NCBI RefSeq assembly: GCF_054482595.1
Contig: NZ_CM137008.1
Length of the DNA: 64,000 nt
Reading direction: 5' to 3' (one strand)
Shown here in pieces: positions 1,841 to 52,294 of the stretch. The notes under the pieces were generated by a model. That model ran no database searches, had not been told where the DNA came from, and saw only the letters and a program-made list of their open reading frames with translations. Both the position numbers and the translations under genes were made by a program. How positions within the stretch are numbered: position 1 is the first letter of the stretch; the number at the start of each line of letters is the position of its first letter.

Positions 1841-3991
1841 ATGGATACGAAAAAACTATTCAAGCACATACCCTGGGTGATTCTCGGAATCATCGGTGCA
1901 TTCTGCCTCGCGGTAGTTGCATTACGTCGGGGGGAGCACGTCAGTGCCCTGTGGATCGTGGTCGCCTCTGTGTCGGTGTATCTGGTGGCGTATCGCTACT
2001 ACAGTCTGTACATCGCCCAGAAGGTGATGAAACTCGACCCTACGCGCGCGACGCCTGCGGTTATTAACAACGACGGTCTGAACTACGTTCCGACCAACCG
2101 TTACGTGTTGTTTGGTCACCACTTCGCCGCTATCGCCGGTGCCGGTCCGCTGGTCGGTCCGGTTCTCGCCGCACAGATGGGCTACCTGCCTGGCACGCTG
2201 TGGCTGCTGGCGGGGGTAGTACTGGCCGGTGCGGTTCAGGACTTTATGGTGCTGTTTATCTCCTCTCGCCGTAACGGCGCATCTCTCGGTGAGATGATCA
2301 AAGAAGAGATGGGACCAGTACCGGGGACTATCGCGCTGTTTGGCTGTTTCTTAATCATGATCATCATCCTCGCCGTTCTGGCGCTGATTGTGGTTAAAGC
2401 CCTGGCCGAAAGTCCGTGGGGTGTCTTCACCGTTTGCTCAACCGTACCGATTGCGCTGTTTATGGGTATCTACATGCGCTTTATCCGTCCGGGGCGTGTG
2501 GGTGAAGTCTCTGTTATTGGTATCGTGCTGCTGGTTGCCTCTATCTACTTCGGTGGCGTGATTGCTCACGATCCGTACTGGGGTCCGGCACTGACCTTTA
2601 AAGACACCACCATTACCTTCGCGCTGATTGGCTATGCGTTTGTTTCCGCACTGCTGCCGGTGTGGCTGATCCTCGCACCGCGCGACTATCTGGCAACCTT
2701 CCTGAAAATCGGCGTTATCGTCGGCCTGGCGCTGGGTATCGTGGTGCTGAACCCGGAACTGAAAATGCCAGCGATGACCCAGTACATTGACGGTACTGGC
2801 CCGCTGTGGAAAGGCGCTCTGTTCCCGTTCCTGTTCATCACCATCGCCTGTGGTGCGGTATCTGGCTTCCACGCGCTGATCTCTTCCGGTACGACGCCGA
2901 AACTGCTGGCTAACGAAACCGACGCGCGTTTCATTGGCTACGGCGCAATGCTGATGGAGTCCTTCGTGGCGATTATGGCGCTGGTTGCTGCGTCCATCAT
3001 CGAACCGGGTCTTTACTTCGCGATGAACACCCCACCTGCTGGCCTTGGCATCACCATGCCTAACCTGCATGAAATGGGTGGCGAGAATGCGCCGATCATC
3101 ATGGCGCAGCTGAAAGACGTTACCGCACACGCGGCGGCGACCGTCAGCTCCTGGGGCTTCGTGATTTCGCCAGAGCAGATCCTGCAAACCGCGAAAGACA
3201 TTGGAGAGCCTTCTGTCCTGAACCGTGCAGGTGGTGCGCCGACGCTGGCGGTAGGTATCGCTCATGTGTTCCACAAAGTGCTGCCGATGGCTGACATGGG
3301 CTTCTGGTATCACTTCGGTATTCTGTTCGAAGCCCTGTTCATCCTGACCGCGCTGGATGCTGGTACCCGTTCTGGCCGCTTTATGCTGCAAGACCTGCTG
3401 GGTAACTTCATCCCGTTCCTGAAAAAAACCGACTCTCTGGTTGCCGGTATCATCGGTACTGCGGGCTGTGTGGGTCTGTGGGGCTACCTGCTGTATCAGG
3501 GCGTGGTCGATCCGCTGGGCGGCGTTAAGAGCTTGTGGCCGCTGTTCGGTATCTCCAACCAGATGCTGGCAGCCGTGGCGCTGGTACTGGGCACCGTTGT
3601 GCTGATTAAGATGAAGCGCACCCAATACATCTGGGTAACTGTTGTTCCGGCCGTATGGCTGCTTATCTGCACCACCTGGGCGCTGGGCCTGAAACTGTTC
3701 AGCACCAACCCGCAGATGGAAGGCTTCTTCTACATGGCAAGCCAGTACAAAGAGAAGATTGCTAACGGTACTGACCTGACGGCGCAGCAGATTGCCAACA
3801 TGAACCACATCGTTGTGAACAACTACACCAACGCGGGCCTGAGTATTCTGTTCCTGATTGTGGTGTACAGCATCATCTTCTACGGTTTCAAAACCTGGCT
3901 TGCGGTGCGTAACAGCGACAAACGTACTGACAAAGAAACACCGTACGTTCCAATCCCGGAAGGCGGCGTGAAGATCTCTTCGCACCACTAA
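1841..3991 (+). CDS. btsT: Pyruvate/H+ symporter BtsT (CstA family; formerly YjiY), 716 aa
   Basis: ORF-track ORF 1826-3991 gives a CstA-family polytopic membrane protein. The start is taken at the ATG at 1841 (MDTKKLFKHIPWVILG...), which matches K-12 length; the ATG at 1826 lacks an SD. Confidence 0.9.
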   Translation: MDTKKLFKHIPWVILGIIGAFCLAVVALRRGEHVSALWIVVASVSVYLVAYRYYSLYIAQKVMKLDPTRATPAVINNDGLNYVPTNRYVLFGHHFAAIAGAGPLVGPVLAAQMGYLPGTLWLLAGVVLAGAVQDFMVLFISSRRNGASLGEMIKEEMGPVPGTIALFGCFLIMIIILAVLALIVVKALAESPWGVFTVCSTVPIALFMGIYMRFIRPGRVGEVSVIGIVLLVASIYFGGVIAHDPYWGPALTFKDTTITFALIGYAFVSALLPVWLILAPRDYLATFLKIGVIVGLALGIVVLNPELKMPAMTQYIDGTGPLWKGALFPFLFITIACGAVSGFHALISSGTTPKLLANETDARFIGYGAMLMESFVAIMALVAASIIEPGLYFAMNTPPAGLGITMPNLHEMGGENAPIIMAQLKDVTAHAAATVSSWGFVISPEQILQTAKDIGEPSVLNRAGGAPTLAVGIAHVFHKVLPMADMGFWYHFGILFEALFILTALDAGTRSGRFMLQDLLGNFIPFLKKTDSLVAGIIGTAGCVGLWGYLLYQGVVDPLGGVKSLWPLFGISNQMLAAVALVLGTVVLIKMKRTQYIWVTVVPAVWLLICTTWALGLKLFSTNPQMEGFFYMASQYKEKIANGTDLTAQQIANMNHIVVNNYTNAGLSILFLIVVYSIIFYGFKTWLAVRNSDKRTDKETPYVPIPEGGVKISSHH

Positions 3992-4000
3992 CCGTGTTTA

Positions 4001-4027
4001 GCCCCGCTTCGGCGGGGCTTTGTTCTT
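4001..4027 (+). terminator. GC-rich hairpin (gccccgc-ttcg-gcggggc) followed by a T-run, between btsT and yjiX
   Basis: Perfect 7-bp stem with a 4-nt loop followed by tttgttctt, read directly. Confidence 0.6.
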
Positions 4028-4040
4028 ATCAGAGTGAACT

Positions 4041-4244
4041 ATGTTTGGTAACTTAGGACAGGCAAAAAAATATCTCGGCCAGGCGGCGAAGATGTTGATT
4101 GGCATTCCAGACTACGACAACTACGTCGAGCATATGAAGACCAACCATCCCGACAAGCCGTACATGAGCTATGAAGAATTCTTCCGCGAACGCCAGAACG
4201 CGCGCTACGGCGGCGATGGTAAAGGCGGTATGCGCTGTTGTTAA
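4041..4244 (+). CDS. yjiX: YbdD/YjiX-family small protein (DUF466), 67 aa
   Basis: ORF-track ORF immediately downstream of btsT, the conserved CstA-family partner arrangement. Confidence 0.85.
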
Positions 4245-4254
4245 TGGAGAGAGC

Positions 4255-5211
4255 ATGAACCCGATTGCAGTTACCCTACTCACCGGTTTTTTAGGCGCGG
4301 GCAAAACCACCCTGCTGCGCCATATTCTTAATGAACAACACGGCTACAAGATTGCCGTGATTGAAAACGAATTCGGCGAAGTCTCCGTTGATGATCAACT
4401 GATTGGCGACCGCGCCACGCAGATCAAAACGCTGACCAACGGCTGCATCTGCTGTTCGCGCTCCAACGAGCTGGAAGACGCACTACTCGACCTGCTGGAT
4501 AATCTCGACAAGGGCAATATTCAGTTCGACCGTCTGGTCATTGAATGCACCGGCATGGCCGATCCCGGCCCGATTATTCAGACCTTTTTCTCCCATGAGA
4601 TTTTATGCCAGCGTTACCTGCTGGACGGCGTGATTGCGCTGGTGGATGCGGTACATGCCGATGAGCAGATGAACCAGTTCACCATCGCCCAGTCCCAGGT
4701 TGGCTACGCCGACCGTATTCTGCTGACTAAAACCGACGTCGCAGGCGAAGCAGAAAAACTGCGCGAACGCCTGGCGCGCATCAACGCCCGTGCACCGGTC
4801 TACACCGTTACCCACGGCGACATCGACCTGGGCCTGCTGTTCAACACCAACGGTTTTATGCTGGAAGAAAACGTCGTCAGCACCAAACCGCGTTTCCACT
4901 TTATCGCGGATAAACAAAACGATATTTCGTCGATTGTGGTAGAACTGGATTACCCGGTAGATATCAGCGAAGTTTCCCGGGTGATGGAAAACCTGCTGCT
5001 GGAATCGGCGGATAAACTACTGCGTTACAAAGGGATGCTATGGATTGACGGCGAACCTAACCGCCTGCTGTTCCAGGGCGTCCAGCGCCTCTACAGCGCC
5101 GACTGGGACCGCCCGTGGGGCGATGAAAAACCGCATAGCACGATGGTGTTTATCGGGATTCAGCTGCCGGAGGAAGAGATTCGGGCGGCGTTTGCGGGGT
5201 TGAGGAAGTAA
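4255..5211 (+). CDS. yjiA: CobW/COG0523-family P-loop GTPase YjiA, 318 aa
   Basis: ORF 4171-5211 contains a GxxGxGKT P-loop (LLTGFLGAGKTTLL) and a CxCC motif (GCICCS). Start is taken at the ATG at 4255, which is preceded by GGAG and sits just after the yjiX stop. Confidence 0.9.
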   Translation: MNPIAVTLLTGFLGAGKTTLLRHILNEQHGYKIAVIENEFGEVSVDDQLIGDRATQIKTLTNGCICCSRSNELEDALLDLLDNLDKGNIQFDRLVIECTGMADPGPIIQTFFSHEILCQRYLLDGVIALVDAVHADEQMNQFTIAQSQVGYADRILLTKTDVAGEAEKLRERLARINARAPVYTVTHGDIDLGLLFNTNGFMLEENVVSTKPRFHFIADKQNDISSIVVELDYPVDISEVSRVMENLLLESADKLLRYKGMLWIDGEPNRLLFQGVQRLYSADWDRPWGDEKPHSTMVFIGIQLPEEEIRAAFAGLRK

Positions 5212-41190: not shown

Positions 41191-42093
41191 TTATTGATAA
41201 ACAAAAGTCACGCCAATAATCGATTGCACATTCCCTGCAGTCACCTGCCCTCCGGTACGTGCGTAATTTGCCGTTAATCCCAGACTTACCGCCGAAGTTC
41301 CTACTGCTCCTAACGATACCGTGTTATTCGCTGGAATAATCGTACCGTTGCGCGTCAACTGTACGCCGACGCCCTGCGCTGGTGAAAACGACGCTGTATT
41401 GGTGAAAATCGAGTTGCCCGCATCTGCGGTTGTGCCGGAGAGGTAATACCCCAGGTTTTGGCTTTTCGCACAATAAACGGTAAGAGGAATTGGCACTGAA
41501 CCAGGGTAGTCCGGCAGAGTAACGGTGACATCACGGGCAGAAACATCGCAGCCGCCAGTAGGCACCACCACATCATTATTGGCGTAAATATTCCACACAA
41601 ACTGGAAATCATCGCTGTTATAGTTGTTGGTCTGTCGCAAAATAAGCACGGCAATTAATGAGCCAGCTTTAATCGCCACCCCGCCCGCACTGCTCACAGG
41701 CGTCAAATAAAGCGCCACCGGCCACGGCTTATCCGTTCTCGAATTATAAACAACCCGCGGCGTTTCGCTGGTGGTCGGAAATGGATAGCTACTGCCACTA
41801 TATTTTACGGTCCCGGAAAAATTAGATAACACGCCGCCATAAGCCGAGCCTCGTTGCAGTGTGACATAGTCTGTAATGGTTTCCGGATAATCGTTATGGC
41901 AAAAGATTTGCGTCGAAAGATCTACGACCAGGTTTTGCCCCACATTCACGGCAGGCGCAAGGTTTACATAAACATTAGCGCTGCCACCGCCAATAGGGAT
42001 AGCGGTACCATTGGCGGTTTTACAGGCGAATGACCAGGCATTTACCGACCAGCCCATCAGCAGTACAGCAAACAGGGTAATAACTCGTTTCAT
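41191..42093 (-). CDS. fimH: Type 1 fimbrial tip adhesin FimH (mannose-binding), 300 aa
   Basis: MKRVITLFAVLLMGWSVNAWSFACKTANGTAIPIGGGSANVYVNLAP... from the internal ATG. Confidence 0.9.
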   Translation of the reverse strand: MKRVITLFAVLLMGWSVNAWSFACKTANGTAIPIGGGSANVYVNLAPAVNVGQNLVVDLSTQIFCHNDYPETITDYVTLQRGSAYGGVLSNFSGTVKYSGSSYPFPTTSETPRVVYNSRTDKPWPVALYLTPVSSAGGVAIKAGSLIAVLILRQTNNYNSDDFQFVWNIYANNDVVVPTGGCDVSARDVTVTLPDYPGSVPIPLTVYCAKSQNLGYYLSGTTADAGNSIFTNTASFSPAQGVGVQLTRNGTIIPANNTVSLGAVGTSAVSLGLTANYARTGGQVTAGNVQSIIGVTFVYQ

Positions 42094-42112
42094 TACAATC
42101 ATCTCTTCGGGT

Positions 42113-42616
42113 TCAGCTGTAGGTATAGGTGATGCTAATCACTGCCTGAATGGTTCCCTGAGTGGCTCCGCCATTTACCGTCAATGCTCTGACCTGTAAC
42201 GGGAAGTGCGCTGATTGTGAGGAATCATCCACCTGAACTGTTTTGGTTGCGCCAGTATTCAATGTGTTGCCACTGTCATCCTGTAGCTCTAACTGGATGT
42301 TTTGCGCGGTCCCCTGGTTTTTATAATATCCGGTACTGTCGGCTGCCCCGCTGAAGCTGGCAGTGACCCTCGACGTTCCCACCGGACAATTAGTCAACTC
42401 AAGCGCAACATCATGCCAGGCCGATGCCGCCCCGGCAGACATCAGACTGAAAGAATAAAGATCGCCGAGATCAACCGTGGCATTGGTGGTGGAAACTGTG
42501 CACGGTTTGGCGACGACCTTACCGTTCACCGTGATGGTGACATCGGCTGCCTGTATCGTCGCACTTGCGAGCGCCAATATTGCCGCCAATAAATACCCAC
42601 GTTTGCGCCATTTCAT
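42113..42616 (-). CDS. fimG: Type 1 fimbrial minor subunit FimG
   Basis: Sequence recognised; internal ATG start. Confidence 0.9.
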   Translation of the reverse strand: MKWRKRGYLLAAILALASATIQAADVTITVNGKVVAKPCTVSTTNATVDLGDLYSFSLMSAGAASAWHDVALELTNCPVGTSRVTASFSGAADSTGYYKNQGTAQNIQLELQDDSGNTLNTGATKTVQVDDSSQSAHFPLQVRALTVNGGATQGTIQAVISITYTYS

Positions 42617-42628
42617 GAGCATCTCCAG

Positions 42629-43159
42629 TTACTGATATTCAAGAGTGAAGGTAGCCGTGGCATTGATATGCCCCGCAGTGACAGGCACCTGTGTCGCCAT
42701 TAGCCGGGCGTAAAAATTCAACGTATTTGGTTTACCCGGCGTCAGGGTCGTCCACGAAATCGCGGACGATGGAGCATTAAGGGGTATTTGATTTTGCTGC
42801 TCATTCAGAAGCTGTATTCCCAATCCCGAAGCCGCTGACACCGTATTTTCAAGTGCAAGCAGGTTGGTATTGTGGCTATCTGCAACGCCGGTAAACCCAA
42901 CCTTTACGGCAGAAACGGCGTTACCACAGGGTGACAGCAAAATACGAAATGGAACGACAGGAGTCGTCGCGCCAATGTTGTTAAATTGCTTCGCCGCGTT
43001 TTCCATCAAATCAACAGTAAAATTGGTTGATTCAGCGGCCACACTACAGCCGTTATCTCTGACATAGCCGCGGATAGTAATCGTGCTATCCGCAGCCAAA
43101 GCGTGACTCACCGCCAGCCACAAAAAAGCGCACAGAAGATAAAAAGGTTTGTTTCTCAT
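42629..43159 (-). CDS. fimF: Type 1 fimbrial minor subunit FimF
   Basis: Sequence recognised. Confidence 0.9.
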
Positions 43160-43168
43160 CACGCCCCC

Positions 43169-45805
43169 TTAACGACATTCAGCTGATAGCTGGGTTAATA
43201 ACTGCTGCTGACTCTCTGGTGGCAGTTGATAATTGGCGACACAGTGAGCATTTTCCTCTTCTCCCCATTTCACCTGAACTTTTCCCGCTAGAGGCATTCC
43301 GCTGAGGTAAACCTGACCATTATCCGCAACAATGCCGCTACTCTGGCTACTCTCTGATGTCACCATCGCCCCAAACGGCAGCGGCTTATTATTGTGGGTT
43401 AGCGTCATGAGCAGTTTTATCCCAACGCGCGCTTTAAACTCTGCTCGCACGATCGCCCCACGAGTGGGAACAACGTTAGCGACCGCGTTATCTAAATCGA
43501 CGTTATCAGCCAGGGTATTGGTATCCAGCGCCACTCTGTTTTCCCGATATTCAGTGGCATAAGGCAGCACGGCATAACCACGCCAGTCGGTACGCACCCC
43601 CGTCTGGTTTTCGACTTTTGCATCTTTTGCGCCAGGCGCTTTAACAAGCACCACCGTATCGTTTAACGGCTGCCCCAGCGTTACGCCATTGGCATGAGCC
43701 AGTACCCCACCGCTGACTCCGTAATAGAGCTGCTTAATATCATCGCTATGGCTGTAACCGATATTGGCATTGCCGTAACCACCGCGATAATTCAGCGTGG
43801 CGTAGCCTGTGCTTCCGCTATTACCATCGCCTCCCCCGGCATAGCCGGTTTGCACGCTATAACTGAGGTTGTTGTCTTCTAGCAACGTACCGTATACACC
43901 AGCCAGATTGGTCATCCGACCGTTGAGATCGTGTGACATGCTGTAGCTGGCACTGGCATGTCGCCACTGAGATTTACTGTCAGAACGCAGCCAGTGGCTG
44001 AAAGGAATATTGACGTTAAGCGCTAACATCTGATCCCGTCCTTTTTGCCAGGCGTTTTTCGTCAGGCTATAGCTGAGCGTCCAGTTGATATCTTCGAACG
44101 CAGTATTTAATCCAGCCTGGAATTGCTCATCGACATTACTCGTTCCCCAATAAGTTTGATGGCTACCACTCAAATACAGTGTTGATGTGCGCCCGAGTTG
44201 CTGAGTAACGGTGAGCTGTAATTTCCCGCGTTTGTTATAAGCGAGGTTGTAATAGTCGGTGAATTTCGGCTTAACCTGAATAACTCCATCCTGTGTTTCG
44301 ATGTTGTAGCCATTCATTCGACTGTATGTTGTATCAGCGAAATTAAAATATCCGCTGGTCGAATAACGGTAACCCACTAACTGAATATTCGTGCCTGACT
44401 CATTGAGCGATTTGTTATAGAGAAAACGCACCGATTGTCCGTCATGCTGACTGTCATCGGGAAGTGTGGAATTAGCCTGAGTCATATCCACAGACAGAGC
44501 GCCTAGTGCCCCCATATTTTTCCCGATACCAAAATTAAAAGCACGATAACGATCTGCCAGTTGCGTTCCACCATATATTGTCCAGCCAGCCGGAAGGCCG
44601 TGGAGTAATGTACTCTGGAAAAAGCGGGGTTTTTCCTGTTGCGCATTTCCACTACGGTATTCTCCTGCCGTAATGGAATAACGAGTATGCCCTTCACGTT
44701 GCAAAAGCGGGACTGACGAATAGGGTACGGTAAAAATCTGCGTGCTGCCGTCAGCCTCTTTAATCGTTACCTGCAAGTCACCACTATTACCTGCGGCATA
44801 GATATCGTTGATGGTAAAAGGCCCCGGTGGCACCGTACTATTATAAATGTCATACCCATTTTGTTTAATAGTGACCTGTGCAGTACCACGAGCAATACCG
44901 TGGATCACCGGGGCAAATCCTCTTTGGCTATCGGGTAACATATTGTCATCTGAGGCCAATTGTGCGCCGCGAAAGTTAATACCATCGAAAATATCGCCCT
45001 GAGTATAACCATCACCCAGCGTCAGCCGGGAACGTAACGGTATTATGTCTCGCTCAAGCCAGGTATTGATATGCTGCCATTTATTTTTGCTACCTGATGA
45101 ACTGTCGCTACTGTTATAACTCCAGGTGGTATTGTCGCGTAAACGCCACGCACCAATATTTAACCCACTCTGTAGGTTTAAATATGCATAATGGCTGTTA
45201 CCCCCAATCCGATTCTGTACACTATTTCCGCTGAAATTATAATTGAGCAATCCGGCATTAATACCGGGATCCCATAGCTCAGGAGGAATATAACCACGCG
45301 CGCGATTACTCATAAATGCCTGAGGGATCGTCAGGTTCAGTCGCTGCTGACCAACATCCAGATGCGCAGTAGCGTCATGGATCATTGAGGTTAATGGCAC
45401 GCAGGCATCATCTGCCAGCAGATTCATACCGGAGACAGAAGCCGCATTCAGCCCCATACTGGCAAGTTGCGCGCGTGTCAGGCAGGGAACAATCCCTTGT
45501 TCGCTGTCGCCCGTATTAAATGTGACATCACGCGTTGCCATATAACCATTATTCAAATAGATATCGACGCGATACGTCCCTGGCGGTAATTCTTGCCCAT
45601 TTTCAAAACGCGATAAATCGGCCACAGCCTGGGGATCATCCGCTAAAAAGCGCGGATTAAAATAGAGTTCGGCAGATGACAAAGGTGCCTGTGCGGCAAA
45701 AGCACAGGCGACAACGAGCCGGACAAAAAAACCAGCCAAACGATGCTTACGAATATGCAAGCATTGTGTGTTTCGCTGGTAAAGTCTTAAATTCAGATAT
45801 GACAT
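43169..45805 (-). CDS. fimD: Outer membrane usher FimD, 878 aa
   Basis: Sequence recognised. Confidence 0.9.
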   Translation of the reverse strand: MSYLNLRLYQRNTQCLHIRKHRLAGFFVRLVVACAFAAQAPLSSAELYFNPRFLADDPQAVADLSRFENGQELPPGTYRVDIYLNNGYMATRDVTFNTGDSEQGIVPCLTRAQLASMGLNAASVSGMNLLADDACVPLTSMIHDATAHLDVGQQRLNLTIPQAFMSNRARGYIPPELWDPGINAGLLNYNFSGNSVQNRIGGNSHYAYLNLQSGLNIGAWRLRDNTTWSYNSSDSSSGSKNKWQHINTWLERDIIPLRSRLTLGDGYTQGDIFDGINFRGAQLASDDNMLPDSQRGFAPVIHGIARGTAQVTIKQNGYDIYNSTVPPGPFTINDIYAAGNSGDLQVTIKEADGSTQIFTVPYSSVPLLQREGHTRYSITAGEYRSGNAQQEKPRFFQSTLLHGLPAGWTIYGGTQLADRYRAFNFGIGKNMGALGALSVDMTQANSTLPDDSQHDGQSVRFLYNKSLNESGTNIQLVGYRYSTSGYFNFADTTYSRMNGYNIETQDGVIQVKPKFTDYYNLAYNKRGKLQLTVTQQLGRTSTLYLSGSHQTYWGTSNVDEQFQAGLNTAFEDINWTLSYSLTKNAWQKGRDQMLALNVNIPFSHWLRSDSKSQWRHASASYSMSHDLNGRMTNLAGVYGTLLEDNNLSYSVQTGYAGGGDGNSGSTGYATLNYRGGYGNANIGYSHSDDIKQLYYGVSGGVLAHANGVTLGQPLNDTVVLVKAPGAKDAKVENQTGVRTDWRGYAVLPYATEYRENRVALDTNTLADNVDLDNAVANVVPTRGAIVRAEFKARVGIKLLMTLTHNNKPLPFGAMVTSESSQSSGIVADNGQVYLSGMPLAGKVQVKWGEEENAHCVANYQLPPESQQQLLTQLSAECR

Positions 45806-45871
45806 TATTCCTCCGGTTTAAAATCACCCGGCAGTCAATTCTTTTTATTCAGGCGAAAAATTCCCCCTGCG

Positions 45872-46597
45872 TTATTCCATTACGCCCGTCATTTTTGGGG
45901 TAAGTGCACCATAATCATTTATTGTTCGGTAAGTAATATTGCTTCCTGCATCAGAAGGCAATTTAACCGTGCTTTCGCCCATTGGAGGCACCAATGCATT
46001 TTCAAGAACCCGGGTTCCGGCATTCAACTCTGTTACCGTCAGGTAATAGGGTGTCGGGTTAATCAGCGTCAGAGAATTCGCGCTACGACGAAATCTTAAT
46101 TTTTCTGCGGCCTGATCGGGTGGCAACGCTAATTTAGCCGGACGATAGTACAGTTTAATGCGGCTGATAATTGCGAGCTGTAGCGTATTCTCAGTCAATT
46201 TTGATTTATCCATTGACGGAATCGCTTTAACGTTCATCCAGAATAAACTTTCCCGGTCCTGTGGCAAGTGGTTATTTGTTGCATCAAGAATACGTAAGGT
46301 ATTCTCTTTTTTTCCCTTCATCGCAAACAGAGGAGGCGTCACGATAAAACGACCATCCTTTACACCATCGGCATTTTCCACCCATGATTGAATTAAATAG
46401 GTACTATTTTCATCATTATTTGTCACGGCAAGTTGCACTTGTTTTTGCCCTGCCGGATAAATTACGCGAGTCGCACCTAAGGCCACTCCCGCTTCAGCGC
46501 GTCCGGCAACCATCATTGCCATGAACATCAGGATACCTGCCAGCAAGCAGAATGTTATTTCCTGCGATTTCCTTACATTGACGTTTTTATTACTCAC
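45872..46597 (-). CDS. fimC: Periplasmic chaperone FimC, 241 aa
   Basis: Sequence recognised. Confidence 0.9.
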   Translation of the reverse strand: MSNKNVNVRKSQEITFCLLAGILMFMAMMVAGRAEAGVALGATRVIYPAGQKQVQLAVTNNDENSTYLIQSWVENADGVKDGRFIVTPPLFAMKGKKENTLRILDATNNHLPQDRESLFWMNVKAIPSMDKSKLTENTLQLAIISRIKLYYRPAKLALPPDQAAEKLRFRRSANSLTLINPTPYYLTVTELNAGTRVLENALVPPMGESTVKLPSDAGSNITYRTINDYGALTPKMTGVME

Positions 46598-46633
46598 TGT
46601 CCTGTTCCTGTTATCACATTATCTGCTGAACAA

Positions 46634-47173
46634 TTACTGATAGGTTAAAGAGAACCAGGCCTGTGCATTGGCGATGCCGCCAGTAACCCGACGCCCGGTA
46701 GCACGATATTTGGCGATGAAATGTAGCGAAGTAGAGCCTGAGTAAAGCCGTTTCCAGTTTACTGGAGGACGATTAATCGGTACGAGGTTTCCTTCATCAT
46801 CAAACAACGCTACGCCAATATTGGTGGCTATCCCTGGCCCCTCTCCCACGGAAAGCACATCCGGATTTTTACCATCCGCGACACCGTGAAACGCCACACC
46901 TACACGTTCACTCACCACCGTGCTACATTCCCGTAAATGAATAACAAAAGGCACCGGTGCGCTATCTTCCCCTACCGCATGAAACCGGTTACTGCTGATT
47001 TGCCCCATATTGACCGTCATTTGTTTATCACCGGCTTCAATCCGGCAAGTTTCCGCAATAATGACGCCCTGAAATTGCATATTTCCGCCGGGCAACGTGG
47101 TATTCCATTTATTTCCGGCCAGAGCAAACATTGGCAGCAACGACGCTAATAGAAATAATCTCTTCCTTTTCAT
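46634..47173 (-). CDS. fimI: Fimbrin-like protein FimI, 179 aa from the ATG at 47173; start position uncertain
   Basis: [30 protein letters not shown]...; the ORF track's longer 5' extension overlaps fimA. Confidence 0.8.
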
Positions 47174-47237: not shown

Positions 47238-47786
47238 TTATTGATACTGAACCTTGAAGGTCGCATCCGCATTAGCTGCGCCAGGGGTTGCGACACCGGT
47301 TGCATAATAACGCGCCTGGAACGGAATGGTGTTAGTACCGTTATTCAGGGTTGTTTGCTCACTGAATGTCGCACCATCCAGCGTCAGCGCAGCACCCGTT
47401 CTGTCCAGGATCTGCACACCAACGTTTGTTGCGCTACCCGCAGCTGAACTCTGCAGAGCCAGAACGTTGGTATGACCCGCATCAATCGCCGTACCTAAAA
47501 AGGCAACAGCGGCTTTAGATGCAACATTGGTATCGCAATCATTCAGCTGAATGTTAAAACCGACAGCAGAACTGGTTGCTCCTTCCTGTGCCAGCGATGC
47601 GGTACGAACCTGTCCTAACTGAACGGTTTGATCAACAGAGCCTGCATCAACTGCGCAAGCGGCGTTAACAACTTCCCCTTTAAAGTGAACGGTCCCACCA
47701 TTAACCGTCGTGGCAGCGGCCAGAGCCGCTGTAGAACTGAGGGACAGAGCCGACAGAACAACGATTGCCAGAGTTTTAATTTTCAT
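47238..47786 (-). CDS. fimA: Major type 1 fimbrial subunit FimA, 182 aa
   Basis: Sequence recognised. Confidence 0.9.
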
Positions 47787-47905
47787 GCTGCTTTCCTTTC
47801 AAAAAACTATTTCTAAATCGACATGGGCAGTCGTTCTGTACACTTTGTTTTGTCAACGAGTTTGACTGCCAACACTGCACAGTTTTCCCCCAAAAGATGA
47901 AACAT

Positions 47906-48219
47906 TTGGGGCCATTTTGACTCATAGAGGAAAGCATCGCGCACAAACTTTTTCAGTTTATTTGTTGGCTTAATATTCTATTGTTATCTTTATTTATAGA
48001 TTTTTATATTGCATGAGGTGGTTTTTGGAGAGAAGAATGAGGACGATGCGTCGAGTCACAGAAACGTTAGCTTTACATATAGTGGAGGTGATGTGAAATT
48101 AATTTACAAGAGAAATAATTTACATATCAAACAGTTAGGTGCTTTTTGTCGTTTTTTAATATTTTTATGCTTGAGAAAAAATACGTAACTTATTTATGAT
48201 ATGGACAGTTTGGCCCCAA
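47906..48219. promoter_or_regulatory. fimS: fim switch (fimS): 314-bp invertible element bounded by 9-bp inverted repeats TTGGGGCCA (47906-47914) and TGGCCCCAA (48211-48219); appears phase-OFF
   Basis: Both inverted repeats read directly and the length is exactly 314 bp. The best promoter inside the element points away from fimA. Confidence 0.8.
48171..48201 (+). promoter_or_regulatory. Sigma70-like promoter inside fimS (TTGAGA-18 bp-TATGATA) reading rightward toward fimE, away from fimA
   Basis: Hexamers read directly on the + strand next to the fimE-proximal inverted repeat. Confidence 0.5.
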
Positions 48220-48266
48220 TTGTCTTGTATTTATTTATTTTTTAACTTTATTATCAATAAGTTAAA

Positions 48267-48863
48267 TCAAACCTCTTCTCTTTTTAATTTTTCGTTTATG
48301 AGATTATTTCTTTCCCATAATCCGGCAAAACGAGCAGCATTACTGGCGGTATAACGCACAGTATGGCGAATATTTCGATGCCCGAGATAATCCTGAATTA
48401 AACGGGTATCTGCACCACGCTCCGCCAGTTCATAACCGCAAGCATGCCTTAACATATGAGGATGAGTCTGCGTTACGGTTCCAGCTTCAATACCGGCATC
48501 GCGAATAATGCGATAGGCCTGCTGGCGAGAAAGCCGACTCCCGCGGCGAGAAATAAATATAGCGTCGGTCCGGTCAGCGCCTTTCCAGTTAGCACGTTCC
48601 TGGGTCCAGCGTTCCACAGCTTCACGCTCATCAAAACGTAACGGGTGAACGGTAGAAAATCCGTTCTTCAGTCGGCGAATATTTATTCGACCTTCATTAA
48701 GGTCAAGATCCTGATAATGCAGATCAAGCAGTTCACTAATACGCATCCCATGCCGATATGCCAACAGAATAAGACAATAATCTCTGGCTCCCGTTGCCCC
48801 GTAACAAACCGCCTGCATCATGGCCTGAACTTCTTTACCGGTAAGATAACGACGTTTACTCAC
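48267..48863 (-). CDS. fimE: Tyrosine recombinase FimE (ON-to-OFF switching), 198 aa
   Basis: Sequence recognised; C-terminal R..H..R..Y recombinase motifs (HPHMLRHACGYELA ... LGHRNIRHTVRYT). Confidence 0.9.
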   Translation of the reverse strand: MSKRRYLTGKEVQAMMQAVCYGATGARDYCLILLAYRHGMRISELLDLHYQDLDLNEGRINIRRLKNGFSTVHPLRFDEREAVERWTQERANWKGADRTDAIFISRRGSRLSRQQAYRIIRDAGIEAGTVTQTHPHMLRHACGYELAERGADTRLIQDYLGHRNIRHTVRYTASNAARFAGLWERNNLINEKLKREEV

Positions 48864-49340: not shown

Positions 49341-49943
49341 CTATAAAACAGCGTGACGCTGTCGTCCTCTGGCTCTATCCCAGATGCCGTAAAAACGCCC
49401 TGCATTGCTGGCGGTATACCAGACAGTATGACGAATATTGCGATGCCCAAGATAATCCTGGATAAGTCGCGTATCTATTCCCATATTCGCCAAAGCAAAA
49501 CCACACGAATGGCGTAACATGTGCGGATGAATCTCCAGTGACAACCCAGCATTACCACCGGAAGTCGAGATAATATGGTAAAATTGTTGCCGAGAAAGCG
49601 GATTCCCCTTACGCGACAAAAATACCCACTCGCTCTCAGCATGCGGATAAGAAGTACGGATACTCAACCAGTTTTTTAAAGCCTGAACTTCTTTGTTCAA
49701 TAGCGGGTGCGTTGTTGAAAAGCCTTTTTTTAATCGATGGATATATATACACTTTGCCTTAAGATCAATATCCGAAATCCTCAATCGACAAATTTCACTC
49801 GCCCGGAAACCATGAATAAAACAAAGCAAAGTCAGACAATAATTACGTGCTGCATGAGGCCCGGTATTTGCTGCTTTAAGGAGTGATTCGATTTCACTAT
49901 GGGTCAGGAAGTTCCTTTTTTTGTTATCAGCCTTATTCTTCAT
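49341..49943 (-). CDS. fimB: Tyrosine recombinase FimB, 200 aa
   Basis: Translation from the internal ATG: MKNKADNKKRNFLTHSEIESLLKAANTGPHAARNY... Confidence 0.9.
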   Translation of the reverse strand: MKNKADNKKRNFLTHSEIESLLKAANTGPHAARNYCLTLLCFIHGFRASEICRLRISDIDLKAKCIYIHRLKKGFSTTHPLLNKEVQALKNWLSIRTSYPHAESEWVFLSRKGNPLSRQQFYHIISTSGGNAGLSLEIHPHMLRHSCGFALANMGIDTRLIQDYLGHRNIRHTVWYTASNAGRFYGIWDRARGRQRHAVL

Positions 49944-50632
49944 CGTTTTTCCCTTATAATTACAGACGCGCACTAGCTGTGCTGGGTTAGTAATAATCCA
50001 ACATTTTTATCCTGATTATGTTTATAAAAGCGAACGTTTGCTTAATAACTAACGTAAGTGGACCAGTTCTTCTAAGTGAACTTAAATGGAGTAGCAACAG
50101 TTAATTATAATAACGTTGCCATACAAACGCTATGCTCTTGCATGCTATGTACCTTTATATATTTATCAATCGGATACGAATCTAATAATAACCCTCATCA
50201 TTAATGCAACTAATCTTATCTATATATCATGTGATATGTTCTGTAACAAGTAAAATCAACATAAAAAATTCAGCAAAATTTAATATTCGTTCAACTAGCC
50301 GTCTCACATATGACATTATTAGTCAACTCCATTTGCCACAAAATGGCTATTTCATGGAGCGCAGTAATTTCTTAGTGGCTATTATCATGCTAATTCTTAG
50401 GTCCCTAGCGATTATTCCTGGCTGGTTCGTCAGCTTACGCCATGAGATTGTTACATTCCTTTTTATCCTGGAGATATGGGGGAACGCAGGAGATGATTTT
50501 TTCATCTACATTCGTTGGTAAATATAGCTTTGGTCACTACGTAGACTGGCCCCCTGAATCTCCAGACAACCAATATCACTTATTTAAGTGATAGTCTTAA
50601 TACTAGTTTTTAGACTAGTCATTGGAGAGCAG

Positions 50633-50998
50633 ATGATTGATGTCTTAGGACCGGAGAAACGCAGACGGCGTACTACACAGGAAAAGATCGCTATTGTTCA
50701 GCAGAGTTTTGAACCGGGAATGACAGTCTCCCTTGTTGCCCGGCAACACGGTGTGGCAGCCAGCCAGTTATTTCTCTGGCGCAAGCAATACCAGGAGGGA
50801 AGTCTTACTGCTGTGGCCGCAGGAGAACAGGTCGTTCCTGCCTCTGAACTTGCTGCCGCCATGAAGCAGATTAAAGAACTCCAGCGCCTGCTCGGCAAAA
50901 AAACGATGGAAAATGAACTCCTTAAAGAAGCCGTTGAATACGGGCGTGCAAAAAAGTGGATAGCGCACGCGCCCTTATTGCCCGGGGATGGGGAGTAA
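50633..50998 (+). CDS. insC: IS2 transposase OrfA (InsC), 121 aa
   Basis: [29 protein letters not shown]...; A-AAA-AAG slippery heptamer at 50950-50956 for programmed -1 frameshifting into orfB. Confidence 0.85.
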
Positions 50999-51861
50999 GC
51001 TTAGTCAGCCGTTGTCTCCGGGTGTCGCGTGCGCAGTTGCACGTCATTCTCAGACGAACCGATGACTGGAAAGATGGTCGCCGCAGCCGTCACTCAGATG
51101 ATACGGATGTGCTTCTCCGTATACACCATGTTATCGGAGAGCTGCCCACATATGGTTATCGTCGGGTATGGGCGCTGCTTCGCAGACAGGCCGAACTTGA
51201 TGGTATGCCTGCGATCAATGCCAAACGTATTTACCGGATCATGCGCCAGAATGCGCTGTTGCTTGAGCGAAAACCCGCTGTACCGCCATCGAAACGGGCA
51301 CATACCGGCAGAGTGGCTGTGAAAGAAAGTAATCAGCGATGGTGCTCTGACGGGTTCGAGTTCCGCTGTGATAACGGAGAAAAACTGCGAGTCACGTTCG
51401 CGCTGGACTGCTGTGACCGTGAGGCACTGCACTGGGCGGTCACTACGGGCGGCTTCAACAGTGAAACAGTACAGGACGTCATGCTGGGAGCGGTGGAACG
51501 CCGTTTCGGCAACGAGCTTCCGGCGTCTCCAGTAGAGTGGCTGACGGATAATGGTTCATGCTACCGGGCTAATGAAACACGGCAGTTTGCCCGGATGTTG
51601 GGGCTTGAACCGAAGAACACGGCGGTGCGGAGTCCGGAGAGTAACGGCATAGCAGAGAGCTTCGTGAAAACGATAAAGCGTGACTACATCAGTGTCATGC
51701 CCAAACCAGACGGGTTAACGGCAGCAAAGAACCTTGCAGAGGCATTCGAGCATTATAACGAATGGCATCCGCATAGTGCACTGGGTTATCGCTCGCCACG
51801 GGAATATCTACGGCAGCAAGCCAGTAATGGGTTAAGTGATAACAGGTGTCTGGAAATATAG
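50956..51861 (+). CDS. insD: IS2 transposase OrfB (InsD), DDE catalytic domain, 301 aa
   Basis: ORF-track ORF overlapping insC in the -1 frame; sequence recognised. Confidence 0.85.
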
Positions 51862-52294
51862 GGGCAAATCCACTACGACTTAAACCTTCCTCAATCACAG
51901 CCATTCGCCGGGCGATACGGCAAACAAACTAAGTGAAACATCATCCTGAAAACACCAACATCAACAAGCCTCTCCAGATCGACTTCAGAAGTGACCAGTT
52001 ACAAGCCACAAACCAGGAAACATATTTCATGATGAGAATTATGCTCAGCCTGATGGCGGGTAAACACTGATTTTCACCAAGCTCACTGAGTTAGCTTGCA
52101 AAGCTTCCCTTGTTTAGACTCTAAATAAATTATTTATAAAACAAATAGTTAAACAAAAATCTTTAGTTTTTGAAGACCACTGCAAGTGTTCGTCTGGCTT
52201 CACATGGCATCTTCCTCTTAGAAAAAGATCGACATATTTTGTGACACGAATTGCAAATCTGGTTTTGTTGTATGGATTGCGTGATTTTTGATCT

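Follow-up and report, generated by a model that had tools for sequence, protein, structure and literature searches.

Which way does the fim switch point in the sequenced molecule, and could it still be turned round? Promoter inversion at this locus has been textbook knowledge since 1985, and in the established mechanism the tyrosine recombinases FimB and FimE flip a 314-bp promoter-bearing segment, fimS, by recombination between 9-bp inverted repeats. In the window, referring to the whole 64-kb stretch of DNA that was analysed, positions 47906-48219 are almost certainly the canonical E. coli fimS, present in phase OFF and functional rather than locked. The orientation, the capacity to switch and the regulatory surroundings of fimB are taken up in turn below.

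Identity and anatomy of the element

The landmarks of the element are as follows.

47906-48219, no strand assigned: the invertible element fimS in phase OFF; its 314 bp take in the two 9-bp repeats
47906-47914, no strand assigned: IRR, the fimA-proximal 9-bp inverted repeat TTGGGGCCA, which occurs once in the 64-kb window
47938-47941, no strand assigned: CGCG, a unique BstUI site on which the Dorman laboratory's orientation assay relies
47948-47983, minus strand: Fis site overlapping LRP-2, matched via the wild-type flanks of the mutagenic oligonucleotide FBSFOR2
48171-48200, plus strand: fimA promoter candidate, TTGAGA-18 nt-TATGAT, pointing to fimE and away from fimA
48182-48187, no strand assigned: SnaBI site TACGTA inside the promoter spacer, used in an orientation assay
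48211-48219, no strand assigned: IRL, the fimE-proximal 9-bp inverted repeat TGGCCCCAA, which likewise occurs once in the 64-kb window

The sequence TGGCCCCAA is the exact reverse complement of TTGGGGCCA, and the outer ends of the two repeats delimit exactly 314 bp. A perfect 9-bp inverted repeat is not rare in such an AT-rich stretch, since a second perfect pair of this length was present in the same 750 bp. The gene order is fimB, fimE, fimS, fimA with every gene on the minus strand, and in that order fimS follows the 3' end of fimE and precedes the 5' end of fimA. Reverse-complement alignment to E. coli K-12 MG1655 (NC_000913.3) showed identity at 307 of 314 bases (97.8%), with seven substitutions and no indels, and the collinearity runs through fimE, fimS and fimA. 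On sequence grounds, the identification of fimS is thus secure from homology and gene context, not from repeat or promoter motifs. The sequence-only reading of this DNA had described the 314-bp element as intact, which is borne out by the absence of any indel relative to MG1655 and by the two perfect repeats; in particular, the alignment to MG1655 disclosed no 16-bp deletion of the O157:H7 fimS type in 47906-48219.

A consensus scan of 47600-48500 returned four sigma-70-like matches against 2.1 ± 1.4 in shuffled sequences, which is not a clear enrichment in this AT-rich region. The best of the four, with a score of 10/12, combines TTGAGA at 48171-48176 and TATGAT at 48195-48200 over a spacer of 18 nt; it stops 10 nt short of the fimE-proximal repeat at 48211 and occupies the end of the element opposite to the Fis/LRP-2 site. 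These hexamers we take to be those of the experimentally mapped fimA promoter (Olsen and Klemm 1994), and TTGAGA/TATGAT is probably the active fimA promoter. Once fimS is in the ON state, 139 nt would separate TATGAT from the fimA ATG downstream. A search of the open-access literature for the mapped hexamers or the start site of the fimA promoter found no source printing either, and the promoter end of fimS was fixed instead through the published position of the Fis site (PMC9993118) together with restriction assays. The sequence-only reading had placed this promoter at 48171-48201, next to the fimE-proximal repeat; the choice of motif and its location stand, with the range running one base past the hexamer. 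Its further claim that the promoter reads toward fimE and not toward fimA agrees with a plus-strand candidate set against fimE (48267-48863) and fimA (47238-47786) on the minus strand.

Orientation in the sequenced molecule

Orientation was tested without promoter prediction, using three published landmarks that are tied to phenotype, namely the BstUI site, the SnaBI site and the Fis site. In the BstUI assay, primers OL4 and OL20 yield a 726-bp product with a unique site, which is cut into 539 and 187 bp in phase OFF and into 433 and 293 bp in phase ON (PMC9993118). Each primer has an exact match in the window, and in silico digestion gave fragments of 188 and 539 bp, the OFF pattern, while inversion of 47906-48219 in silico changed these to 434 and 293 bp, the ON pattern. 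The SnaBI assay with the primer pair Inv-1/Inv-2 distinguishes 440 and 161 bp in phase OFF from 403 and 198 bp in phase ON (PMC4374849). Here the window gave 442 and 161 bp, again the OFF pattern, and the inverted element gave 198 and 405 bp, the ON pattern.

The third landmark is the Fis site known from footprinting. It overlaps LRP-2 and in phase OFF is found some 50 bp away from the right-hand repeat, at the promoter-distal end (PMC9993118). In the window, the flanks of the Fis/LRP-2 site are conserved at 47948-47983, and the site adjoins the fimA-proximal repeat at a distance of 34-69 bp, as published for OFF. The BstUI and SnaBI digests, applied in silico to MG1655 as deposited (NC_000913.3), both gave OFF patterns too. 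fimS carries no RefSeq annotation in MG1655, and a literature search for an explicit statement that the MG1655 reference is OFF found none.

The fimS of the sequenced molecule is in phase OFF, and no evidence contradicts this. The same orientation had been proposed from the promoter motif in the sequence-only reading and is now supported by the two digests and by the position of the Fis site. The check named there, alignment to a reference in which the promoter might prove to lie at the other end of fimS, was carried out and showed the window to be collinear with MG1655, leaving the claim unrefuted.

The classical HinfI phase assay requires a different reading in this strain. A G-to-A substitution relative to K-12 at 48053-48057 makes a second HinfI site inside fimS, so the assay would show three bands here and not two. 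In the primer pair used for this digest, one primer has three mismatches that stem from an engineered site, and the result counts as supporting evidence only. With these primers, in silico digestion of the window gave 198, 134 and 227 bp (198 bp and a 361-bp remainder) and that of MG1655 gave 201 and 359 bp, the published OFF fragments being 202 and 357 bp (PMC6765310). The result for the window agrees with OFF; the inverted element, with the same primers in silico, would give 347, 134 and 78 bp.

Capacity to switch and the state of the population

The genes on which switching and fimbriation depend are listed below.

41194-47173, minus strand: fimI, fimC, fimD, fimF, fimG and fimH, full length; tblastn with the K-12 proteins gave end-to-end, gapless matches at 98.8-99.7% identity
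47238-47786, minus strand: fimA, the major fimbrial subunit, 182 aa, 97.8% identical to K-12, cut off from its promoter here
48267-48863, minus strand: fimE, intact, a tyrosine recombinase acting from ON to OFF, 198 aa, 100% identical to K-12 FimE
49341-49943, minus strand: fimB, intact, a bidirectional tyrosine recombinase, 200 aa, 100% identical to K-12 FimB

Taken together, all seven structural proteins (FimA, FimI, FimC, FimD, FimF, FimG and FimH) match K-12 without gaps from end to end at 97.8-99.7% identity. A search of the 64-kb window for further FimB-like recombinases (FimX, HbiF, IpuA) found only fimB and fimE.

In the phase-OFF arrangement, the promoter would adjoin the fimE-proximal repeat and fire toward fimE, leaving fimAICDFGH without a promoter and the cell without type 1 fimbriae, and inversion between the 9-bp repeats by FimB or FimE rejoins the promoter to fimA. 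Transcripts started in the OFF state would probably read through the repeat nearest fimE and enter the 3' end of that gene in the antisense direction, the fimE stop codon being at 48267-48269. A Rho-dependent terminator inside fimS acts on fimE mRNA in an orientation-dependent manner (PMC9993118). FimB inverts the element both ways and FimE strongly prefers ON to OFF, with a strong OFF bias when both are present (PMC9993118, PMC2636892). Owing to this bias of FimE, OFF is the state to be expected in the consensus assembly of a normal culture: intact FimE would outpace the OFF-to-ON inversion by FimB, most cells of an ordinary culture would be OFF, and the assembly would report the majority.

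Evidence for actual inversion of this allele came from other genomes. The 901-bp sequence around fimS, when inverted in silico, is identical at 100% and in a single piece to E. coli DETEC-C31, and in 16 genomes the allele is present, 100% identical, in the OFF orientation of the window. As the same allele is seen both OFF and ON in nature, this fimS allele inverts, and the switch in the window is, by all sequence indications, functional and not locked.

Just outside the fimE-proximal repeat, the fimE-fimS spacer at 48233-48243 differs from K-12 by the loss of 1 bp from an A-run and by a C-to-T substitution. The IHF site I described in the literature adjoins this repeat. The spacer changes do not block inversion, because the identical flank is found in the ON-oriented DETEC-C31.

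The prevalence of either state was estimated by counting genomes collinear with the 901 bp of the window as OFF and those matching its inverted version as ON, at a coverage of at least 80%. The locus was present in 4,725 complete E. coli genomes. Of these, 4,454 (~94%) were OFF, a share somewhat inflated by the inclusion of locked-OFF lineages such as O157:H7 (PMC6765310), 250 were ON, and 21 matched neither orientation. OFF in the window is therefore the default state of deposited genomes, a correct but ordinary observation that was already known; it says nothing unusual about the strain, and its value is mainly that of correct annotation. Moreover, what an assembly shows is the orientation held by most members of a switching population; it is not a fixed property of a strain and should not be taken for a fixed genotype. 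The sequenced culture was probably mixed, with OFF cells in the majority. The strain has a complete, switchable type 1 fimbrial system, and should become fimbriate under inducing conditions.

Three other explanations of the observed state were weighed. If the switch were really ON, the fimA promoter would belong to the opposite end of fimS, with the TTGAGA/TATGAT motif a chance match, for which the frequency of promoter-like motifs in AT-rich DNA (four against 2.1 expected) and the existence of a weaker minus-strand match, TTGATA-18-TAAATT at 48130-48101, could be adduced. The two phenotype-calibrated digests and the footprinted Fis site nevertheless give OFF with no promoter prediction involved, and MG1655, collinear with the window, shows the same OFF patterns; the ON reading was rejected on the in silico BstUI and SnaBI patterns and keeps a negligible probability. 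A switch locked OFF by a defective element or by defective recombinases, as in E. coli O157:H7 or Shigella, has real precedents in the 16-bp deletion of O157:H7 (PMC6765310) and the nonsense mutations of fimB in Shigella (PMC4374849), and the fimS of the window does carry seven substitutions relative to K-12. Against it stand the absence of any indel, the two perfect repeats, the identity of FimB and FimE to the active K-12 proteins, the identical 901-bp allele inverted in DETEC-C31 and the 16 genomes with this allele in OFF at 100% identity. Locking was rejected on the intact repeats, the K-12-identical recombinases and the ON copy in DETEC-C31, and is highly improbable.

The orientation might also be an assembly artefact, with OFF imposed by the assembler or by a reference-guided step whatever the reads contained, since many pipelines settle short invertible segments by following the majority or a reference, and K-12, as a reference, is itself OFF. 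The seven fimS differences from K-12 and the nearby strain-specific IS2 argue for de novo sequence, however, and the 250 deposited ON genomes indicate that assemblers report ON when it is dominant, which makes such an artefact very unlikely. The preferred reading is accordingly a functional fimS captured in phase OFF.

IS2 upstream of fimB and relation to known systems

The only feature that could set the switching of this strain apart from the norm lies upstream of fimB and is not part of fimS.

50542-51872, plus strand: complete IS2 of 1331 bp with typical IS2 termini, inserted relative to MG1655 into the nanC-fimB intergenic region

The element matches sequences annotated as 'IS3-like element IS2 family transposase', is flanked by 5-bp target duplications CTACG at 50537-50541 and 51873-51877, and lies 594 bp upstream of the fimB ATG. 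Its place among the regulatory sites of fimB was determined with the SlyA operator O_SA1 (TTAGCATGATAA), which occupies -179 to -168 relative to the start site of fimB (PMC3173223) and maps to 50393-50382 on the minus strand. On the scale anchored on O_SA1, the fimB start site falls at about 50214 and IS2 at about -327. The NanR and NagC operators are situated upstream of the fimB promoter, at a distance of about 470-760 bp (PMC3173223), and IS2 therefore lies between the SlyA sites and these operators, parting fimB from the NanR/NagC activator sites.

The exact IS2/fimB junction of the window was sought in 5,426 complete genomes and occurred in none of them. About 12 genomes carry an IS2-family element at some other point between nanC and fimB. 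Two such elements lie nearer nanC, at 3295-4523 of locus L003 (NZ_CM176497.1) and at 3348-4576 of locus L004 (NZ_CP062203.1). Unrelated E. coli, including a canine isolate and a porcine ETEC, are among the strains with IS2-family insertions in this region. IS2 insertion into the nanC-fimB region appears to recur.

OFF-to-ON switching is limited by low fimB expression (PMC3173223), from which it is predicted that IS2 may lower fimB expression and thereby cut both the OFF-to-ON rate and the response to sialic acid and GlcNAc. Carried further, this would mean that IS2 at about -327 uncouples fimB from the distal NanR/NagC activators, so that less FimB is made and the OFF state of a functional switch is strongly reinforced. 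Such a reading could draw on the complete IS2 with its target duplication at 50542-51872, on its position, with the SlyA sites on one side and the NanR/NagC operators (-470 to -760) on the other, on the limiting role of fimB expression (PMC3173223 for both) and on a junction seen in no complete E. coli genome searched. On the other hand, with 94% of genomes OFF anyway the insertion is not needed for the observation, the fimB promoter and the SlyA sites remain attached to fimB, and the IS end could provide outward transcription with the opposite effect. An OFF state reinforced by IS2 is thus a possibility of the less likely kind. Somewhat more doubtful still is the proposal that IS2, by pushing the NanR/NagC/IHF module 1.3 kb farther from fimB, has made the strain a natural cis-regulatory mutant with reduced OFF-to-ON switching and an abnormal sialic acid/GlcNAc response; if true, the OFF state would be unusually stable in this lineage.

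Among the closest known systems is the switch of K-12 MG1655 (NC_000913.3, 4542682-4542995). Like it, the window has a fimS of 314 bp with the same 9-bp repeats, set between fimE and fimA and deposited OFF, and its FimB and FimE proteins are 100% identical to those of K-12. It differs from K-12 in the seven fimS substitutions, one of which (G to A, in the 48053 region) adds the HinfI site, in the 1-bp deletion and single substitution of the fimE-fimS spacer outside the element, in four residues of FimA, and in the IS2 upstream of fimB, which K-12 lacks. In DETEC-C31 (NZ_CP116197.1; 3501-4401 of locus L006), the stretch of 901 bp from the 5' end of fimA through fimS to the 3' end of fimE shows 100% identity to the window after in silico inversion of the latter's fimS, and fimB and fimE are annotated as intact, like those of the window; however, this genome was deposited ON and has no IS between fimB and nanC. 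The fim loci of O157:H7, with its 16-bp deletion, and of Shigella have the same element and were likewise deposited OFF (PMC6765310, PMC4374849). They are fixed in that state by the fimS deletion or by mutations in the recombinases or the operon, in contrast to the window, in which fimS has no indel and both the recombinases and the operon are intact.
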